A stretch of DNA of 64,000 nt, from the IMG/VR virus record IMGVR_UViG_3300029935_000001, positions 201,867 to 265,866 of that record; one strand, given 5' to 3'. Position 1 is the first letter of the stretch; the number at the start of each line of letters is the position of its first letter. The position numbers were made by a program, and so were the translations under genes. Source of the DNA: a virus. Taxonomy: Duplodnaviria > Heunggongvirae > Uroviricota > Caudoviricetes. Of this stretch, positions 5,257-36,909 are shown in pieces. The notes under the pieces were generated by a model. That model was not told where the DNA came from, made no database searches, and saw only the letters and a list, made by a program, of their open reading frames with translations.

Positions 5257-5747
5257 GGATAGCTTGGATTGTAGGGCAAAGCGATCAGAATTACGATGTT
5301 GCTGCCCTCAAGGCAATCGGTCCTCTCTGGGGCACTTGGCAGTCGTGGCGGAAGTTTAAAACTGATAACGTAGTAGTAACAGACTTTAGCAAAGCAGTTG
5401 ACTTAACTGGCCGTGCCTTTCATAGTGTTTGTAACTTGTATCTCCCCGAAGACTTGTATCAAGCTGCTCAACGGCCAGCTGGCGTGCGCTTGTTTGCGCG
5501 TCCTGCAGGCGCTGGCGATTTAGCTGCATTAATGGGAGTAGTAGCAACTGTGGCCGACATTGTTCTTATTATTGGGTTGAGGCCGGGCTCACCTAACGAA
5601 GAACGTGAAGTGAAGTCAATTGTGCTAGCACACCCTAATATTCAATGGGTGAGCCTCGATGCCACTGAACCTTTTTTTGGTGGCAATGCTCCGCCAAACT
5701 GCCTAGTAGACACCACTGCTAATGTCTTGGCGATGCTTTCTGGTTGA
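5253..5747 (+). CDS. hypothetical protein
   Basis: The ATG overlaps the upstream stop (aaATGa); the gene's stop TGA lies inside the -35 TTGACT of the next promoter. Confidence 0.45.
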   Translation: MRIAWIVGQSDQNYDVAALKAIGPLWGTWQSWRKFKTDNVVVTDFSKAVDLTGRAFHSVCNLYLPEDLYQAAQRPAGVRLFARPAGAGDLAALMGVVATVADIVLIIGLRPGSPNEEREVKSIVLAHPNIQWVSLDATEPFFGGNAPPNCLVDTTANVLAMLSG

Positions 5748-9395: not shown

Positions 9396-10388
9396 GTGAT
9401 ACCAACAAGAGCGCAATACTTTTTTACTGAGCGTGGATTTTTTAGAAAAAACGTCCTCAAAGAAGAAAAGTTCAGTCAACGCTATCCAGCTGTTTATGCA
9501 GAAATTAACAAAATTACTTCAACCTCGTTGCCGTGGCGAGAACGAGTGTATCTATATATACATGATGCACAAGAACCCCCACTCTGCCACTGCGGATGCG
9601 GAGAGCGGTGTGCTTTTTCGAACTGCCAAGACTCGAGTCGATTTACATATTTAAAGTTTTATTCAACTAAGTGCAAAGCTCGTGCTTATGGCGGTGTTGG
9701 AAATCCGTTTTTTGGTAAAAATCACTCAGATGAGACAAAAGAAGCAATCAGAGTTAAAAAGCAGGGCAAAACATATTCGCCCGAAGTAAACGCTAAAAAA
9801 GTGCGTCGCGGTGCTCAAAACGGAATGTACCAGCGTTGTAACTATGACGTTTGGCTCGAAAAATACGGCCCAGAAATTGCTTTACAAAAGCAGTTAGCAG
9901 CAAACGCTAAAAAAGTGCGTCGCGGTGCTCAAAACGGAATGTATGGTAAGTCGCCATCAAAAAAAGCTGGCAATTCTGTTAAGTGTTGGTACAAAGGTTA
10001 CTTTTGCCGCAGTTTATCCGAGCTAAGTTTTATAATAAACTACTGCGAGCGATTTAGGTTATTGTTTGAAACTGCCGAAACTACAAAATACAAAGTTGTT
10101 ATAGGTCCTAATAAAACGTACAGACCGGATTTTTTAGTAAACAACAAATTTATTGTTGAGATCAAACCAAAAGGGCTACAGAAGGCCCATGCTGACAAGT
10201 TTAGCATAGCCAAAGCAGAGTTTCTAAAGCAAGGGCTAACGTTTAAAGTCATTGACCCTATTAAAAAACTAAGTTATAATGACATTTTTGCGCTAATGCA
10301 AACGGGTGCCGTAGAAATAATGGCTGCTACGCATAGCAAAACTTATAACAACTTTATGAAAAGGTATCAAAAATGGGCAAAGCGGTAA
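9396..10388 (+). CDS. free-standing homing endonuclease (Zn-finger + NUMOD3 repeats + C-terminal PD-(D/E)xK-like nuclease)
   Basis: GTG start after AGGAGAG; CHCGCG zinc motif; NUMOD3-like GKNHSDETKEAIRVKKQGK; duplicated AKKVRRGAQNGMY module; C-terminal RPDF...VEIKPK motif; inserted between the pnk remnant and the intact pnk. Confidence 0.7.
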   Translation: MIPTRAQYFFTERGFFRKNVLKEEKFSQRYPAVYAEINKITSTSLPWRERVYLYIHDAQEPPLCHCGCGERCAFSNCQDSSRFTYLKFYSTKCKARAYGGVGNPFFGKNHSDETKEAIRVKKQGKTYSPEVNAKKVRRGAQNGMYQRCNYDVWLEKYGPEIALQKQLAANAKKVRRGAQNGMYGKSPSKKAGNSVKCWYKGYFCRSLSELSFIINYCERFRLLFETAETTKYKVVIGPNKTYRPDFLVNNKFIVEIKPKGLQKAHADKFSIAKAEFLKQGLTFKVIDPIKKLSYNDIFALMQTGAVEIMAATHSKTYNNFMKRYQKWAKR

Positions 10389-11281
10389 TCTGTGTCGGCG
10401 TTTCGGCTTCTGGAAAAAGCACCTGGGCGCGCAATTTCATCCACGACCGTACTACGAATGCCGGCGAGCAGTGGGTTGACATCAATCGCGACTGGGAACG
10501 GCGCTGTATTTTGGTCGAAAAGTCGCAAGGTCAGATTGACCGGCTCGTTTGGCGCCACTGGAAGTGGAAGTGGGAGGACGAAGTCACCCAACGTTGTGAA
10601 GCTCGTCTTGCCGAAGCGGCTGCTGCCCAGAAAAGTGTTGTGATCTCGGATACCAACCTGAATCGAGACCGCCGGACGGCTTTGAAGCACAAGCTCGAAG
10701 CACTTGGGTACGATGTTGAATACAAGTTTTTCTCGGTTACGTTCGAGGAAGCGTGCCGGCGCGATGCTGAACGCGAAAACGGTGTTGGTTACTCGGTGAT
10801 CGCTAAGCAGTTTGAGCAGTGGAATGCCGAGTTTCATGCTAAGCACATCCTGCAAGCTGGTTTGCCTGAATGCGTGATCGTTGACATCGACGGCACCATG
10901 GCTCACATGAAGGGGCGCGGCCCGTTTGATTGGGCGCGAGTGGGCGAAGATACAGTCGACCCGGTTGTGGATCGAATGGTCCAAGCCCTTCAAGACCAAG
11001 GATTTAAGATCGTTTTCCTGTCGGGGCGCGATGGCTGCTGCGAAGCTGAAACTCGCGAATGGCTCCGCAACAAGACCAGCGTCGGCGAGTTCGAGCTGTT
11101 TATGCGCACGGCAGGCGATTCGCGACGCGACGACATTGTCAAGCAAGAATTGCTTGCTGAGCATGTCGAAGGGCGTTACAATGTTTTTTGCGTGTTCGAC
11201 GATCGCCCCCAAATGATTCGCAAGTGGCATGCTATGGGTCTCAAGGTAATGGCTGTTAGCAACCCGTACCTCGAGTTTTAA
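10373..11281 (+). CDS. pnk: polynucleotide 5'-kinase/3'-phosphatase (T4 Pnk-like)
   Basis: N-terminal P-loop GVSASGKST; C-terminal HAD phosphatase motif VIVDIDGTM (DxDGT) plus downstream Asp residues; same domain order as T4 PseT. Confidence 0.8.
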   Translation: MGKAVICVGVSASGKSTWARNFIHDRTTNAGEQWVDINRDWERRCILVEKSQGQIDRLVWRHWKWKWEDEVTQRCEARLAEAAAAQKSVVISDTNLNRDRRTALKHKLEALGYDVEYKFFSVTFEEACRRDAERENGVGYSVIAKQFEQWNAEFHAKHILQAGLPECVIVDIDGTMAHMKGRGPFDWARVGEDTVDPVVDRMVQALQDQGFKIVFLSGRDGCCEAETREWLRNKTSVGEFELFMRTAGDSRRDDIVKQELLAEHVEGRYNVFCVFDDRPQMIRKWHAMGLKVMAVSNPYLEF

Positions 11282-11282
11282 C

Positions 11283-11570
11283 ATGTGGTTTGAAGTATTA
11301 GATGAGCGTGTTGGCCCGTATGTAGTAGTTAACGGACACGGATTTGTCTACTACATACGGGCCGAACACTACTATCATCACCTGCTGTCAGGTGATACAT
11401 TCTATTCGCTAACCCTGCTGCAGATTGCTGACTTCGCGATTGATCTACAAACTAATGAGATCAAAAAGTGTCGAGTACCGTGTCACAAGTTAGTCGAATC
11501 TTATATTTTAAGGAATCACCAAGATGATGTTCATCCCGAAAGAAAAACTGAAGAGCGGTGCGTACTATGA
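11283..11570 (+). CDS. hypothetical protein
   Basis: ORF immediately after pnk. Confidence 0.4.
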   Translation: MWFEVLDERVGPYVVVNGHGFVYYIRAEHYYHHLLSGDTFYSLTLLQIADFAIDLQTNEIKKCRVPCHKLVESYILRNHQDDVHPERKTEERCVL

Positions 11571-13984: not shown

Positions 13985-15082
13985 ATGCGTAAGCTTGCTA
14001 CCATTCGTAAGATCGCCGAGATCAAGCCCATCGAGGGCGCCGACGCCATTGAACATTACCGCGTACTTGGGTGGTGGGTCGTTGACAAAAAAGGTGCCCA
14101 TCAAGTCGGCGACCTTGTCATTTACCTCGAGATCGATTCCTGGGCGCCCAATGAGCTGGCTCCGTTCCTGAGCAAGGGCAAAGAGCCGCGCGAATACAAC
14201 GGCGTTAAGGGCGAGCGCCTCAAAACTGTTAAGCTTCGCGGCGCTATCTCGCAAGGGCTGCTGCTGCCCGTTAAAACCGGAATCGGCGGCTACCCGTTTG
14301 TTGAGGGCTCCGCCGGCGAGCACACTGTTGTTCACGAAGGCGACGATGTCTCCGAACTGCTCGGCATTCAAAAATACGAGCCGCCCGTTCCGGCTCAGCT
14401 GCGCGGCAAGATTGCCGGCACGTTCCCGAGCTGGCTGCGAAAAACTGACCAGGAACGGATCCAATCTTGTTTTGCGGAGATTGAGCCTCTGCTCAGCGGC
14501 CTTTGGGTGATTGAAGAAAAGCTCGATGGGTCGTCTATGACTGTTGGCTACCGCAAGGGTGATTTTATCCTCGACAAGGATGGCCAGCCCATCCCTGAAG
14601 AAACTGTGGTTTGCTCGCGTAATCTGTCGCTCAAGCTCGACGATGACGCTAACTCGTTTGTGCGTGTGGCCCGAGAAACTGGCGTGCTTGACGCGCTGAA
14701 GGCGTATGGCCGTAACCTGGGCATTTCAGGCGAGCTGTGCGGCGAGGGCATCCAGGGTAACAAGTATAACCTCAAGGGCCAGCGCTGGTTTGTTTTCGAC
14801 ATTCTCGACGTTGATCGGGCCGAGTACGTTAGTTACGAAGAGCGCCAGCTGATCATCAATGATCTCGTTGCGCTCGGCGCCCAACTTGATCAAACTCCAC
14901 TGATTGCTGAGGGCGTTACGCTTGAGGGCATGACCGTCGACGGCTTGCTCCGAGCTGCTGAAGCGAAGAGTGCGCTGAATATTCAAGCCGAGCGTGAAGG
15001 ACTGGTATATAAGAGTGTTGAGCGGCCTGATGTGTCGTTCAAGGCTATTAGCAATCGGTGGTTGCTTAAAACTGGGGAATAA
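13985..15082 (+). CDS. ATP-dependent RNA ligase with N-terminal OB/tRNA-binding-like domain (Rnl5/DraRnl-like)
   Basis: N-terminal Myf/EMAP-like OB segment (RKIAEIKPIEGADAIEHYRVLGWWVV); nucleotidyltransferase motif I KLDGSS, motif IV EGLVYK, motif V FKAIS. Confidence 0.75.
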   Translation: MRKLATIRKIAEIKPIEGADAIEHYRVLGWWVVDKKGAHQVGDLVIYLEIDSWAPNELAPFLSKGKEPREYNGVKGERLKTVKLRGAISQGLLLPVKTGIGGYPFVEGSAGEHTVVHEGDDVSELLGIQKYEPPVPAQLRGKIAGTFPSWLRKTDQERIQSCFAEIEPLLSGLWVIEEKLDGSSMTVGYRKGDFILDKDGQPIPEETVVCSRNLSLKLDDDANSFVRVARETGVLDALKAYGRNLGISGELCGEGIQGNKYNLKGQRWFVFDILDVDRAEYVSYEERQLIINDLVALGAQLDQTPLIAEGVTLEGMTVDGLLRAAEAKSALNIQAEREGLVYKSVERPDVSFKAISNRWLLKTGE

Positions 15083-15086
15083 CAGT

Positions 15087-15188
15087 ATGACCAATCGTTT
15101 TGTTGCTTGGGTAGAATATCACTGCCCTGTTATTAGTGCAGCCGCGCAAGCGGCTGCGTTTGGCTACGTTACTGGAATGCAGCTATGA
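15087..15188 (+). CDS. very small ORF (33 aa)
   Basis: SD GGGGAA ahead of the ATG. Confidence 0.25.
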   Translation: MTNRFVAWVEYHCPVISAAAQAAAFGYVTGMQL

Positions 15189-15601
15189 AAAATCACACCG
15201 TTACGTTCTACAGTCCAGGCACGTTTGTGTCCGAAACCACCAAGGTCGAAATCTCCGAGTGGGATGTTGATACTGCGCTGCGGCTTGCGTTTGGGATTAC
15301 TGAACGCCACGGTGCTCGACCGTACGCGTTCCGCTTTGCTACCGAAACAGTCGGGCTGGATGCCCCAGCTACCGAAACAGCAAGATCGCCATTGCACTTT
15401 ATTGGCGGTCGTGTTCGCACGTTAGCTGAAGTCGAAGCAGACAACCTGCCCGGCGAAGAAGTGCTGCGCTGGAACATGAAGCACAACGGTATTGCTCGTG
15501 TGATCGAAACCAACACATCATACAAGCATACCTCCGAGCTAAAAGACGACGATATCGTTCTCGACGAGAAATATCTGACAGCTTTTAGACTCGCAAACTG
15601 A
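15185..15601 (+). CDS. hypothetical protein
   Basis: ATGA overlap with the previous ORF; followed by an intrinsic terminator. Confidence 0.45.
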   Translation: MKNHTVTFYSPGTFVSETTKVEISEWDVDTALRLAFGITERHGARPYAFRFATETVGLDAPATETARSPLHFIGGRVRTLAEVEADNLPGEEVLRWNMKHNGIARVIETNTSYKHTSELKDDDIVLDEKYLTAFRLAN

Positions 15602-15609
15602 TGTAAATA

Positions 15610-15643
15610 GCGAGGTGTGTTGAAAAACCACCTCGCTTTGTTG
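15610..15643 (+). terminator. intrinsic terminator (gcgaggtg...cacctcgc + tttgttg)
   Basis: 8-bp GC-rich stem followed by a U-tract. Confidence 0.65.
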
Positions 15644-16117
15644 CATCAACAGTGGGACCGCAAACCACTATAAAAAGTGCGCTAACAGGACAGTCTGGTA
15701 TGCGCTCGCATACTCCCATTGAGCTAGCCGAGGTAGTGCTCGTAGCCAGCAGATCTTGGGTCCGCCGCCAGCAGGCAAACGGTTGCCGATTTTGTGACCC
15801 GAGGAAAGCCGCCGAGAGGAGATGCGAGAGTTCTCTAAATGATGTGGGCAACTGTGAAAAAGATACAACCCACGCTTTGTATAACTGAAGGTGTAGAGGT
15901 TATACAAGGAACCGTTGAAAGCCAATAACCGATGTAGGGGGTACAGGTCAACCGCCTCCGCGCTGCAGATGTTCGGCAGTAATCAGGGCTACACCCACGC
16001 GGAAACGCCCGACTCGTCGAATTCCTGTGAAAATTTGCCCGCTCTGGGCAAATTACGACCAATCTTTCGAATATCCCTTAAAAACTTTAAAATAATTGCC
16101 ATAAGAATTTGTTTGCG

Positions 16118-16157
16118 AACGAGTTGAACACGAGTGACAAACGAGTGTGAGCGAGTG
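16118..16157. repeat. four iteron-like ACGAGTG repeats phased about 11 bp apart, next to an AT-rich stretch
   Basis: aACGAGTTg / cACGAGTG / aACGAGTG / gCGAGTG at 16118-16157; the AT-rich run aaaactttaaaataattgccataagaattt lies at 16081-16110. Confidence 0.45.
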
Positions 16158-16289
16158 AAGCAAACAGGTGTTTGTAGAACACCTTCATACAGTAAAACCC
16201 GTTTGGGCATTTGTAAGTGTCTAGAATTCTGAGTTGACAATCAGCGTTCGTTTTTGTAAACTATGATTTATTAACCACAGAGGTGTTAA

Positions 16290-16616
16290 ATGCCTAGAAC
16301 TAAAGCCGAACGGCTTGCTGCAATCCAAACAATGTATTTGCTTGCAGCTGATAATGGACGGCTCTCAGAGAGCCAAATTGCCCAACTTATTGCAGATGTC
16401 GAACAGGTAATGGATCCTCACTATACTGTGACTTTTCGGTGCCGGCACAGTCAGATGAAAAAACTTCTGCAAGCAGTAAACCGAAAGCGCAATCGTTTAT
16501 TCTTTGACGTTGACCTCGAAGTAAATGAAATTAAAAAATCGTATTTCAAACTCGAAGATACTCAATACGCGGTAACTATGCGCTATGCTACTCGCCCGTC
16601 CGGCGCGCATTATTAA
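16290..16616 (+). CDS. hypothetical protein
   Basis: SD GAGGTG ahead of the ATG. Confidence 0.45.
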   Translation: MPRTKAERLAAIQTMYLLAADNGRLSESQIAQLIADVEQVMDPHYTVTFRCRHSQMKKLLQAVNRKRNRLFFDVDLEVNEIKKSYFKLEDTQYAVTMRYATRPSGAHY

Positions 16617-34756: not shown

Positions 34757-34794
34757 CGTTATCTTGCCTATAACAACACCTGCCCTGAGGTAGC

Positions 34795-35124
34795 ATGAGC
34801 GACCAACCAGAACTATTCACACTCGACGACAGCAGCCAGGATTGGTGGCTTAACGGCGAACTACATCGCGATGATGGCCCTGCTGTAATCGATAGCGACG
34901 GAACCGAGTGGTGGTTCCGCAATGGGCGATTACATCGCGAAGACGGGCCTGCTGTAATTCGGACCGATGGTACCCAGGAGTGGTATCGCAACGGCCAACT
35001 ACATCGCGAAGATGGTCCTGCTGTTATCTATGCAAACGATGGCACCCAGGAGTGGTTTCTTGATGGCAACCGAGTAGACCCCATTGTTCACTTAATGCTG
35101 CGTTATGAGCAAGAAACAGGTTGA
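34795..35124 (+). CDS. MORN-variant repeat protein, paralog 1 (3.5 repeats)
   Basis: 23-aa repeats DGTxEWWxRNGxLHREDGPAVI; conserved tail VDPIVHLMLRYEQETG. Confidence 0.65.
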   Translation: MSDQPELFTLDDSSQDWWLNGELHRDDGPAVIDSDGTEWWFRNGRLHREDGPAVIRTDGTQEWYRNGQLHREDGPAVIYANDGTQEWFLDGNRVDPIVHLMLRYEQETG

Positions 35125-35178
35125 CCGTTGCGTTAATTCCGGTATAATATAAATATACAGATAATCCAGGAGTTTCGC
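35121..35178 (+). promoter_or_regulatory. promoter unit duplicated with the MORN genes
   Basis: cagGTTGACCgttgcgttaattccggTATAAT; the -35 overlaps the ...ETG-stop of the upstream gene. Confidence 0.6.
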
Positions 35179-35505
35179 ATGAACAACAAACCAACCCTAC
35201 AAAAACGCACAAACGGCACCCAGCAGTGGGTCCTCAATGGGCAACTACATCGCGAAGATGGGCCTGCTGTTATTCAAGCCGATGGTACCAGGATGTGGTA
35301 TCTTAATGGCCAGCGACATCGCGAAGATGGCCCTGCTGTGATCGATAGCGACGGAACCGAGTGGTGGTTCCGTAATGGCGAACTACATCGCGAAGATGGC
35401 CCTGCTGTTGTTCAAACAGACGGAACCAAAGAATGGTGGATCAACGGCGAAGAAGTAGACTTCGTGACTCACGCAGTGCTGCAACACAAAAATAAAAATC
35501 GTTGA
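35179..35505 (+). CDS. MORN-variant repeat protein, paralog 2
   Basis: Same repeat type; divergent tail VDFVTHAVLQHKNKNR. Confidence 0.65.
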   Translation: MNNKPTLQKRTNGTQQWVLNGQLHREDGPAVIQADGTRMWYLNGQRHREDGPAVIDSDGTEWWFRNGELHREDGPAVVQTDGTKEWWINGEEVDFVTHAVLQHKNKNR

Positions 35506-35561
35506 CCATCCGGGCTTGTTTTGGTATAATAACTATATCAACAACGCATTAGGTACGTGTT
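35502..35561 (+). promoter_or_regulatory. promoter TTGACC-17-TATAAT
   Basis: -10 at 35525-35530. Confidence 0.55.
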
Positions 35562-36029
35562 ATGAGCGGCAAACCAGAACTACACAAGCTCACCGACGGC
35601 ACCCAAAAGTGGTATCGCAACGGCGAACTACATCGCGAAGATGGGCCTGCTGTTATTCGGGCAGATGGCACTCGGTGGTGGTACCTCAATGGTCAAATTC
35701 ACAGAGAAGATGGTCCTGCGTGTATTTGCTCCAATGGCACCCAGGAGTGGTGGATCAACGGCCGACTACATCGAGAAGACGGGCCTGCATATATCGATGC
35801 AGACAGCACCCAGGAGTGGCACCTCACTGGCCTGCGACATCGCGAAGATGGGCCTGCATACATTGGTGCAGATGGCTCTCAGTGGTGGTACCGCAATGGC
35901 CGACTACATCGCAAAGACGGGCCTGCTGTTATCTATGCAAACGATGGCACCCAGGAGTGGTACCTCAATGGCAACCGAGTAGATCCTATCGCTCACTTAG
36001 TGCTGCGTTATGAGCAAGAAACGAGTTGA
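35562..36029 (+). CDS. MORN-variant repeat protein, paralog 3 (6 repeats)
   Basis: Six consecutive W-x-x-N-G-x-x-H-R-E/K-D-G-P-A repeats; tail VDPIAHLVLRYEQETS. Confidence 0.65.
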   Translation: MSGKPELHKLTDGTQKWYRNGELHREDGPAVIRADGTRWWYLNGQIHREDGPACICSNGTQEWWINGRLHREDGPAYIDADSTQEWHLTGLRHREDGPAYIGADGSQWWYRNGRLHRKDGPAVIYANDGTQEWYLNGNRVDPIAHLVLRYEQETS

Positions 36030-36086
36030 CCACCTGGGCTCGTTTCGGTGTAATAACTACATACAACAACACATTGGGTATGTGCA
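36027..36086 (+). promoter_or_regulatory. promoter TTGACC-17-TGTAAT
   Basis: The -35 overlaps the ...ETS-stop. Confidence 0.5.
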
Positions 36087-36482
36087 ATGAGCAGTAAGAC
36101 AGAAATGCGCGAATTCGCGGATGGCGGCCGGATGTGGCTACTTAATAGCCAACCACACCGCACGGACGGACCTGCTGTTATTCAAGCAGATGGAACCCAA
36201 AAGTGGTTCAGGAATGGCCGACTACATCGCGAAGACGGACCTGCTTTTATTCATGCAGATGGAACCCAAAAGTGGTATCGCAACGGCGATCTACATCGCG
36301 AAGATGGACCTGCTGTTACTTGGATTGATGGAACACAAGCCTGGTATCGAAATAGCCAACTACATCGCGCGGATGGACCTGCATATATTGATGCAAACGG
36401 CACCCAAATGTGGTACCTCAATGGCAAACGAGTAGATCCCATCACTCACTTAGTGCTGCGTTACGAGCAAGAAACAGGTTGA
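36087..36482 (+). CDS. MORN-variant repeat protein, paralog 4 (5 repeats)
   Basis: Same family; tail VDPITHLVLRYEQETG. Confidence 0.65.
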   Translation: MSSKTEMREFADGGRMWLLNSQPHRTDGPAVIQADGTQKWFRNGRLHREDGPAFIHADGTQKWYRNGDLHREDGPAVTWIDGTQAWYRNSQLHRADGPAYIDANGTQMWYLNGKRVDPITHLVLRYEQETG

Positions 36483-36524
36483 CCGTTGCGTTTAATTCTG
36501 GTATAATAGCATTGGGTATATGCC
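36479..36524 (+). promoter_or_regulatory. promoter TTGACC-17-TATAAT
   Basis: Nearly identical to the unit at 36848. Confidence 0.55.
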
Positions 36525-36851
36525 ATGAGCAACCGACTAAAACTACGTAAACTCGCTAATGGCACCCAGATGTGGGCCCTTGGCGGCCGACTACATCGCG
36601 AAGACGGGCCTGCTGTTATTCACGCCGACGGCGACCAGATGTGGTATCGCAATGGCCAACTACATCGAGAAGATGGGCCTGCAGTTGTCTACTCTGATGG
36701 ACAACAAGAGTGGTGGATCAACGGCCAACTACATCGCGAAGATGGACCTGCTGTTGTTTGGCCCAATGGCACCCGAATGTGGTGGCTTAATGGCAAACAT
36801 GTAGACCCCATCACTCACCTAATGCTGCGTTATGAGCAAGAAACAGGTTGA
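36525..36851 (+). CDS. MORN-variant repeat protein, paralog 5 (4 repeats)
   Basis: Same family; tail VDPITHLMLRYEQETG. Confidence 0.65.
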   Translation: MSNRLKLRKLANGTQMWALGGRLHREDGPAVIHADGDQMWYRNGQLHREDGPAVVYSDGQQEWWINGQLHREDGPAVVWPNGTRMWWLNGKHVDPITHLMLRYEQETG

Positions 36852-36909
36852 CCGTTGCGTTTAATTCTGGTATAATAACTACATACGGTAATTGAACGGA
36901 CAAAAAGAA
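36848..36909 (+). promoter_or_regulatory. promoter TTGACC-17-TATAAT plus leader variant (actacatacggtaattgAACGGAcaaaaagaaATG)
   Basis: -10 at 36871-36876. Confidence 0.6.

Follow-up and report, generated by a model that had tools for sequence, protein, structure and literature searches.

A probable gene for a pseudoknotted RNA of about 540 nucleotides in a large phage and its homologs in uncultivated phages

Large, highly structured RNAs of undefined function are rare, and each has opened new biology; GOLLD, ROOL and OLE, for example, have recently been shown to build RNA-only assemblies. Here we describe a candidate for a further such RNA in a stretch of 64,000 nucleotides (nt) of phage DNA (the window; positions 201,867 to 265,866 of IMG/VR record IMGVR_UViG_3300029935_000001), which is part of the ~323-kb sequence of a large phage. 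The element lies at ~15644-16184 of the window, on the + strand, in a non-coding gap between two open reading frames (ORFs). With a probability of about 90% we regard it, from sequence comparison, as the gene for a compactly folded, pseudoknotted non-coding RNA of ~540 nt belonging to a family outside Rfam 15. A first-pass annotation of the same DNA had proposed an origin of replication or packaging region for this gap and had named a structured non-coding RNA as the alternative. That alternative is now strongly supported: the element is conserved, its changes are compensatory, its pseudoknot covaries, and it has a large family of homologs.

Like GOLLD and ROOL (PMC12286853, PMC5737381), the RNA is several hundred nt long, combines many helices with a pseudoknot, is carried by phages, has an undefined function and has been recognised by covariation and not by experiments. 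Unlike them, it finds no sequence or structure match by Rfam covariance models, a permissive threshold included, and is not located beside transfer RNA (tRNA) genes: there are none near it in 45 loci, and ARAGORN finds neither a tRNA nor a transfer-messenger RNA in the 64-kb window. Its carriers also differ, being T4-like and jumbo myoviruses from metagenomes.

Among the origins of phage T4, oriE contains 12-nt repeats at even spacing, whose role is undefined, and oriF and oriG consist of a promoter and an A+T-rich unwinding element (PMC3016281). The window resembles these in having evenly spaced short direct repeats beside an A/T-rich stretch in a non-coding gap of a T4-like phage. It differs in that the repeats are lineage-specific, lie within a covarying RNA hairpin and follow ~450 nt of conserved RNA structure, and in that the A bias of the A/T-rich stretch is confined to the transcribed strand.

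RNase P builds a dock for the tRNA elbow from two T-loops that flank a hairpin (J11/12-P12-J12/13). Such an interdigitated double T-loop, also relevant to T-box stem I, consists of two pentanucleotide T-loops with reciprocal intercalation and base triples, and docks the tRNA elbow (PMC4810234). As in the RNase P specificity domain and T-box stem I, two short T-loop-like motifs of the phage RNA flank a hairpin (motif 1, P14, motif 2) and behave as a symmetric pair. Unlike those RNAs, it matches neither Rfam model, and the P4 and CR-I to CR-V signatures are absent.

A conserved, structured element independent of its flanking genes

The gap extends from 15602 to 16289, bounded by the stop of the ORF at 15185-15601 and the ATG at 16290, and measures 688 bp. 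The first-pass annotation had given it 690 bp and had called it non-coding, which holds. When codon usage is scored with the window's own long ORFs as training set, the flanking genes come out clearly positive, and all + strand frames across 15600-16290 stay at or below zero; the minus strand shows only a short, weak blip at ~16020-16140. The six-frame ORFs within the gap reach at most 88 amino acids (aa) and are junk-like, as had been said of them. Lacking any positive-scoring + strand frame, the gap does not qualify as a protein-coding gene. Indels in the alignments of the RNA copies are not multiples of three and the stem substitutions are compensatory, both of which count against coding.

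Relatives were located through homologs of the 138-aa protein encoded directly upstream of the gap and of the RNA ligase. They provide six syntenic copies of the island (L003/L004/L005, L006, L007, L019/L020, L023 and L032) and one divergent copy (L022). In the six syntenic relatives about 15640-16185 is retained at 88-99% DNA identity. Identity to L003 is 88-99% over 15500-16160, with the flanking genes mostly at 55-80% (DNA), and drops from about 0.9 to 0.6 right after the terminal hairpin P17 (16167-16183). Within this lineage the differences cluster in hairpin tips, and elsewhere base pairing is retained.

A model of 19 helices was scored on the window-lineage alignment (A4), with shuffles (500) and helix partners slid by 1-3 columns as controls. 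In A4, 98.5% of cells are paired and 25 pairs carry changes on both sides, compared with 6.0±1.8 pairs in the shuffles (none of the 500 reached the observed value) and 0-5 in the slid-column controls. Counted from the per-pair table, G-U makes up ~77 of the 789 cells, including invariant G-U pairs. These cells would be A-C mismatches on the minus strand, and the RNA is therefore read from the + strand.

The element has homologs well beyond this lineage. The 17-mer GGTCAACCGCCTCCGCG (15946-15962) has at least 119 exact matches in IMG/VR; 104 of the matches listed are homologous to the island core by nhmmer, and some to much more of the island. A second IMG/VR pattern that does without the 17-mer block, GGTTCCGTTGA...TAGGGGGTAC, yielded at least 73 further contigs, giving a family of at least 177 IMG/VR phage contigs with a homologous RNA of roughly 400-420 nt. 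In the 73 copies found without selecting on the 17-mer block, GGTCAACCGCCTCC is still almost invariant, and the conservation of the core is thus not an artefact of the search. A profile built from IMG/VR copies only (L044-L235, without the window lineage) gives a single nhmmer match in the window, at 15836-16206 (E = 8.8e-18, 57.4 bits), the next-best match having E = 1.2. A profile that includes window-lineage sequences matches 15684-16209, and homology to the wider family starts near 15684. At the level of sequence these matches place the window RNA in a newly delimited phage RNA family. The carriers are, as far as tested, uncultivated T4-like and jumbo myoviruses; some carrier contigs measure 337-347 kb, and the gp46-like protein of a representative contig (L091) has its nearest cultured relative in the jumbo phage PA5oct (43% identity).

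Base pairing is maintained across this family. The joint alignment A5, comprising 69 distinct copies (64 from IMG/VR, together with the window rows), has 71 consensus pairs, 45 of them with compensatory changes. The proportion of paired cells is 97.2%, and double changes affect 488 cells, where shuffles give 111.7±9.4 and slid controls 34-76.

The genes around the RNA are not shared in the same way. In the IMG/VR loci the stop codon of the upstream gene is immediately followed by the RNA (6626-7035 in L091). This gene is a 142-aa GIY-YIG (SegE-like) ORF in 124 of 154 loci (6197-6625 in L091) and an unrelated ORF in the other 30; L207 has another GIY-YIG type. These GIY-YIG ORFs have the look of homing endonuclease genes that have settled next to a conserved RNA gene. 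The 138-aa ORF upstream in the window is unrelated to them, and none of the neighbour genes in L091 has a homolog in the window. Downstream genes are co-oriented with the RNA in the window and convergent in the IMG/VR loci, where they include a T4-type baseplate protein. Distant homologs of the 138-aa protein (L008, L009) and RNA ligase homologs of 70-76% identity (L010-L018) come from phages without the RNA. Since the neighbours differ between lineages, the RNA is a unit of its own and not an appendage of a particular gene.

Known families and cultured phages offered no counterpart. Rfam 15 covariance models, those for GOLLD, ROOL, OLE, HEARO, RNase P, tmRNA, group I and II introns and riboswitches among them, gave no match across the 64-kb window at the gathering threshold. 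At a permissive threshold the scan of the island proposed in the first-pass annotation (run over 15500-16400) returned two chance-level matches only (E>1). Rfam gave no match in 13 family loci, and only noise at E>3 in L091. By blastn the island has no match in GenBank phages or plasmids, and an IMG/VR copy has none among 50,697 GenBank phage records. An IMG/VR search anchored on the two flanking ORF proteins returned nothing. The DNA seeds ACGAGTGACAAACGAGTG (an 18-mer), GATGTAGGGGGTACAGGTC and CCCGACTCGTCGAATNCC gave no matches or chance matches only, as did one metagenome scan with a seed specific to the window lineage (chance matches only), and a scan of bacterial and archaeal genome contigs gave 11 chance matches and no homolog. 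No description of the RNA was found in the searchable literature, sequence strings included.

Architecture of the RNA and its motif pair

The family fold comprises about a dozen helices (P2-P4, P7-P12, P14, P16 and P17), a loop-to-strand pseudoknot (PK1), an almost invariant core of ~55 nt, an A-rich linker and two terminal hairpins. The parts of the window copy are as follows.

~15644-16184, + strand: predicted structured non-coding RNA gene, ~540 nt (identity profile, alignments A3, A4 and A5, pair counts, profile matches)
15651-15669, + strand: P1, a 5' hairpin (AGTGG/CCACT) specific to the window lineage; one both-side change
15697-15714, + strand: P2, hairpin GGTATGCG/CGCATACT; U-A to C-G change in L007
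15715-15718 with 15757-15760, + strand: P3 (CCCA/TGGG), enclosing P4; all four pairs covary family-wide, 99.6% paired
15723-15750, + strand: P4, a variable hairpin; four different stem sequences within the lineage
15761-15812, + strand: domain found in the window lineage only, a gap in all 64 IMG/VR copies; contains P6
15780-15786 with 15794-15800, + strand: P6 (CGGTTGC/GTGACCG); three pairs with both-side changes
15818-15836, + strand: P7, hairpin with a GAGA tetraloop; two both-side changes, and the homologous family hairpin covaries
15843-15874, + strand: P8/P8b with conserved loop GAAAAAGAUAC; invariant in the lineage, covarying in the family
15875-15886 with 15898-15909, + strand: P9, a 12-bp hairpin; six of its 12 pairs differ at both positions when the window is compared with L022
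15890-15896, + strand: 5' strand of PK1 (GGTGTAG), in the P9 loop; pairs with CTACACC at 15989-15995
15910-15963, + strand: core CCGTTGA...GTAGGGGGTACMGGTCAACCGCCTCCG, nearly without variation; conserved in every one of the 69 aligned copies; includes P11
15937-15942 with 15954-15959, + strand: P11 (GGGGGT/GCCTCC), inside the core
15962-15980, + strand: P12, hairpin with a variable tip; GC, CG and GU exchanges
15989-15995, + strand: 3' strand of PK1 (CTACACC), completing a 7-bp pseudoknot; five of seven pairs changed on both sides in L022
15999-16008, + strand: P13 (GCG-GAAA-CGC), a lineage-specific GNRA hairpin; C-G to U-A in L022
16011-16025, + strand: motif 1, GACUCGUCGAAUUCC, T-loop-like; identity covariation with motif 2 in the family
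16031-16055, + strand: P14, hairpin AAATTTGCCC/GGGCAAATTA; five of nine pairs covary in the family
16064-16077, + strand: motif 2, CUUUCGAAUAUCCC, T-loop-like, containing UUCGAAU; identity covariation with motif 1
16078-16109, + strand: A-rich single-stranded linker; 51% A versus 21% T in the family
16110-16116 with 16160-16166, + strand: P16 stem (TGTTTGC/GCAAACA); C-G to U-A in L023, and all six family pairs covary
16167-16183, + strand: P17, terminal hairpin (GGTGTT/AACACC); invariant in the lineage, six of seven family pairs covary, and conservation stops just past it

Helices P3, P4, P7, P8, P9, P11, P12, P14, P16 and P17 are common to the window and the wider family and occur in the same order. 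Individual pairs have exchanged repeatedly: pair 102-165 of the family alignment (P3) is seen as CG, UA, GC, AU and GU, and pair 262-291 (P8) as GC (30), UA (30) and CG (5). PK1 is kept family-wide through many complementary strand pairs (ATCTAATA/TATTAGAT, GTCTATTC/GAATAGAT, ATTTATCAT/ATGATAAAT, ATCGATT/AATCGAT and ATCTTG/CAAGAT), its strands in L022 being CACACAG/CTGTGTG, and the complementarity of the two strands has a mean self score of 6.7 versus a cross score of 4.8. To the shared fold the window lineage adds a 5' hairpin, an internal domain, two GNRA hairpins and a ~45-nt expansion of the P16 loop.

Two hairpins had been given as examples in the first-pass annotation. The one placed at 15697-15715 (gtatgcg/gcatac) is real and covarying and is identical to P2; the IMG/VR copies have a different sequence there and retain the hairpin. 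The other (ggcaa-acg-gttgcc, 15774-15787) is present in the sequence but does not withstand comparison, being broken in L022, and it is P6 that covaries instead. An alternative pairing of 15650-15655 with 15716-15721 has some within-lineage support and was set aside because it overlaps the family-supported P3. The RNase P-like sequence GAGGAAAG (15802) is not conserved in L003-type copies and was dropped, and an anti-Shine-Dalgarno-like CCUCC, together with a resemblance to the 16S 3' end, was noted and found to be without support.

The two motifs that flank P14 covary in an unusual manner. In the family they read CUCxGAyzAUG and UCUxGAyzAUA, and the letters x, y and z of one motif are identical to those of the other in 129 of 130 distinct copies, the states of xyz being ATG (50), GTA (32), GTG (22), ATA (20), ACG (3) and ATC (2). 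The motifs occupy columns 501-512 and 561-572 of A5 in parallel register, with mutual information of ~1 bit for the two column pairs measured (x and z). Neither a third covarying column nor an internal complement of the two motifs was found within the RNA. The window copies (...GUCGAAUU... and ...UUCGAAUA...) obey the identity rule with other letters, both motifs carrying UCGAAU. Motif 2 has the longer string UUCGAAU, the T-loop sequence of tRNA. Sequence resemblance, with UUCGA in the window lineage, and symmetric covariation suggest the hypothesis that the pair forms a double T-loop.

Phased repeats, rival explanations and possible function

The 3' part of the element contains the features that had first drawn attention to the gap, described as four ACGAGTG iterons one helical turn apart beside an AT-rich run (16081-16110). 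There are indeed four repeats (ACGAGTT at 16119, ACGAGTG at 16130 and 16141, and GCGAGTG at 16151), only two of them exact ACGAGTG; their CGAGT cores at 16120, 16131, 16142 and 16152 are spaced by 11, 11 and 10 nt and do not keep a strict 11-nt phase. At least three copies of any 5-mer at a fixed period arose in 8 of 2000 dinucleotide shuffles, and the repeats are therefore non-random and real. The AT-rich run is equally genuine (A/T-rich at 16078-16109) and corresponds to the A-rich linker of the family, in which A exceeds T in 66 of 69 copies. The repeats (16119-16157) are located in the P16 loop. They are kept in the ~95% identical relatives, replaced by a different insert in L022 and absent from all IMG/VR homologs. 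The family P16 loop reads GAGCG-NN-AGCGAAA, and in the IMG/VR-only profile match its counterpart is the last of the repeats, GAGCGAGTGAA. The position of the repeats inside the covarying P16 stem and the match of the family loop to the last repeat argue that the "iterons" arose in this lineage by multiplication, over ~45 nt, of an RCGAR element that is conserved in the P16 hairpin loop. Separately, three independent Logan unitigs (L005, L007 and L032) end within the repeat block, at ~16150-16160, where strains diverge sharply, and the block may be a recombination or assembly break point.

These findings are hard to square with an iteron-type replication origin of the T4 oriE or plasmid kind, in which the repeats would bind an initiator beside an A/T-rich unwinding element, perhaps with transcript priming (R-loop). 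The adjacency of four CGAGT repeats to an A/T-rich run, the presence of T4-like replication genes (clamp loader) in the phage and the make-up of the T4 origins described above all speak for such an origin. However, neither L022 nor any IMG/VR homolog has the repeats, even though the P16 stem and the neighbouring hairpin are kept; the stem that encloses the repeats shows RNA-type covariation; the linker is rich in A on just one strand; and the ~450 nt of pseudoknotted structure upstream would be left unexplained. A skew check of the kind suggested in the first-pass annotation likewise went against its origin or packaging proposal: between 14 and 17 kb cumulative GC skew climbs steadily, from 0.63 to 0.75, and it is smooth through 15-17 kb, with no turning point at the island. 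Nor is there a transcription strand switch, the long ORFs on both sides (those with family hits or a positive codon score) lying on the + strand. We consider an origin very improbable, and reserve an equally slim chance for a secondary DNA-level role of the 3' part of the RNA gene.

It is also highly doubtful that the RNA is a cis element of a flanking gene, either a long structured 3' untranslated region (UTR) or terminator complex, or a 5' leader or riboswitch of the downstream 108-aa gene. Its position directly after a stop codon in the IMG/VR copies, the terminator-like hairpin that precedes the window RNA and its probable co-transcription with the upstream gene would all suit such a role. 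Against it, the downstream gene has its own promoter 50 nt past the end of conservation, the downstream genes of the wider family are on the opposite strand, the upstream genes are unrelated between lineages, and 400-540 nt with an invariant core far exceed any known UTR stabiliser. We give still less credence to a self-splicing intron or other mobile ribozyme element, an idea raised by the neighbouring GIY-YIG endonuclease gene, directly upstream at most IMG/VR loci, and by the occurrence of the RNA in different genomic contexts in different phages. There is no match to an Rfam group I or II intron even at E up to 10, and no split host gene, the 138-aa protein family being complete at 127-218 aa in other phages. 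In L091 the GIY-YIG ORF lies only 17 nt from the preceding gene, which leaves no 5' intron half, and the endonuclease is absent from 30 loci; it is simpler to suppose that a homing endonuclease gene has settled next to a conserved target.

Several points also weigh against the interpretation as an independent RNA gene of a new family. Two stretches of the RNA ligase gene are, like the island, 96-98% identical to L003, compared with 55-80% for their neighbours. This suggests mosaic exchange in the region, which means that raw identity by itself is no proof of constraint, and part of the within-lineage identity could stem from recent recombination instead. Changes within the lineage were counted on the few sequences that had also served, in part, to derive the structure. 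Single-sequence folding energy is no better than that of shuffles (z = -0.21 for the + strand and -0.36 for the - strand), which we regard as weak negative evidence only. The family may be among the 10,006 unnamed IMG/VR candidates of Fremin et al. 2023 (PMC10690425). Finally, the function of the RNA is entirely inferred.

If the element is an RNA gene, as we favour, the RNA would be transcribed with, or just downstream of, the upstream gene, because the IMG/VR copies, starting right after the stop codon, lack room for a promoter. It would end at P17 and would function as a folded RNA acting in trans and not as a DNA site; it could be a ribozyme, or serve a protein or another RNA as scaffold or decoy. 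The invariance of the ~55-nt core speaks for a site of chemistry or of contact with a conserved partner. By analogy with double T-loops, we tentatively suggest that the RNA is a binding platform in which the core and the two T-loop-like motifs hold a macromolecular partner, possibly a tRNA-like RNA; within the RNA-gene interpretation this falls somewhat short of an even chance. Less likely, it could be a new large catalytic or assembly-forming phage RNA, with the twin motifs as an unusual symmetric or parallel-stranded tertiary module or as twin docking sites. Were twin docking true, tRNA of the host or the phage would be captured or presented by a phage-encoded RNA in the course of infection. 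The window RNA adjoins the tRNA-repair enzymes polynucleotide kinase-phosphatase (PNKP) and RNA ligase.

We regard the RNA as a new family of a known kind, with one feature, the identity covariation, possibly pointing to something new. Its natural variants number more than 170, and with its invariant core of ~55 nt, its covarying pseudoknot and its unexplained identity covariation the family is a ready target for cryo-electron microscopy, chemical probing and the search for partners. More generally, conserved "gaps" in huge phage genomes can conceal RNA genes, and short phased repeats beside AT-rich DNA are not necessarily origins.

Flanking signals and other features of the window

Three further signals lie in the gap outside the RNA.

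15609-15637, + strand: terminator-like hairpin just past the stop of the 138-aa ORF, with a 9-bp stem and an 11-nt loop, then TTTGTTG
16234-16262, + strand: sigma-70-like promoter TTGACA-17-TAAACT, outside the RNA, serving the 108-aa gene that starts at 16290
16280-16285, + strand: Shine-Dalgarno sequence GAGGTG, outside the RNA, serving the same gene

The hairpin bears out the terminator that had been annotated upstream of the island, and is kept in relatives via a compensatory G-C to A-U change. Either it is a terminator-like element that sets the RNA apart from the operon upstream, or it forms the 5' flank of the RNA itself. At the position equivalent to the promoter L003 has TTGACT-17-TATAAT. 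The 108-aa protein has no homologs outside its own cluster. A T4-late-type promoter (TATAAAAA) at 15669 was considered as well; it is not enriched in the window, and family members without the GIY-YIG ORF do not conserve it upstream of the RNA. Sites of the T4-late-promoter-like form TATAAAWA number six in the window, all on the + strand, one of them at 15669-15676, just 5' of the RNA.

The window encodes T4-like replication and RNA-repair genes (clamp loader, PNKP, RNA ligase and UvdE), and no close cultured relative of the phage was found. The RNA-repair pair consists of PNKP at 10373-11281 and RNA ligase at 13985-15082, and the next-closest RNA ligases (70-76%) are located in unrelated T4-like contigs. 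A 305-aa antisense ORF (10367-11284, - strand) almost exactly shadows the PNKP gene (+ strand), probably as an artefact of composition.

At least 15 copies are present of a sigma-70-like promoter whose leader of ~30 nt is highly conserved, AAAAAGGTTGACC-N17-GTATAATAGCTACATAACGTAACGCAACGGAGCAAGCAATG, all on the + strand (among them those at 5741, 8033, 13279, 19816, 21418, 36845, 49420, 52503, 54980, 56789, 58535, 59976, 62283 and 63244), and the leader may be a regulatory RNA element. At 34794-36856, about six paralogous small genes (about 108-130 aa) stand in tandem as 300-nt repeat units of 60-79% identity. Lastly, the ORF at 9396-10388 contains a 45-nt direct repeat of 98% identity, at 9785-9829 and 9899-9943, the two copies being 114 nt apart.

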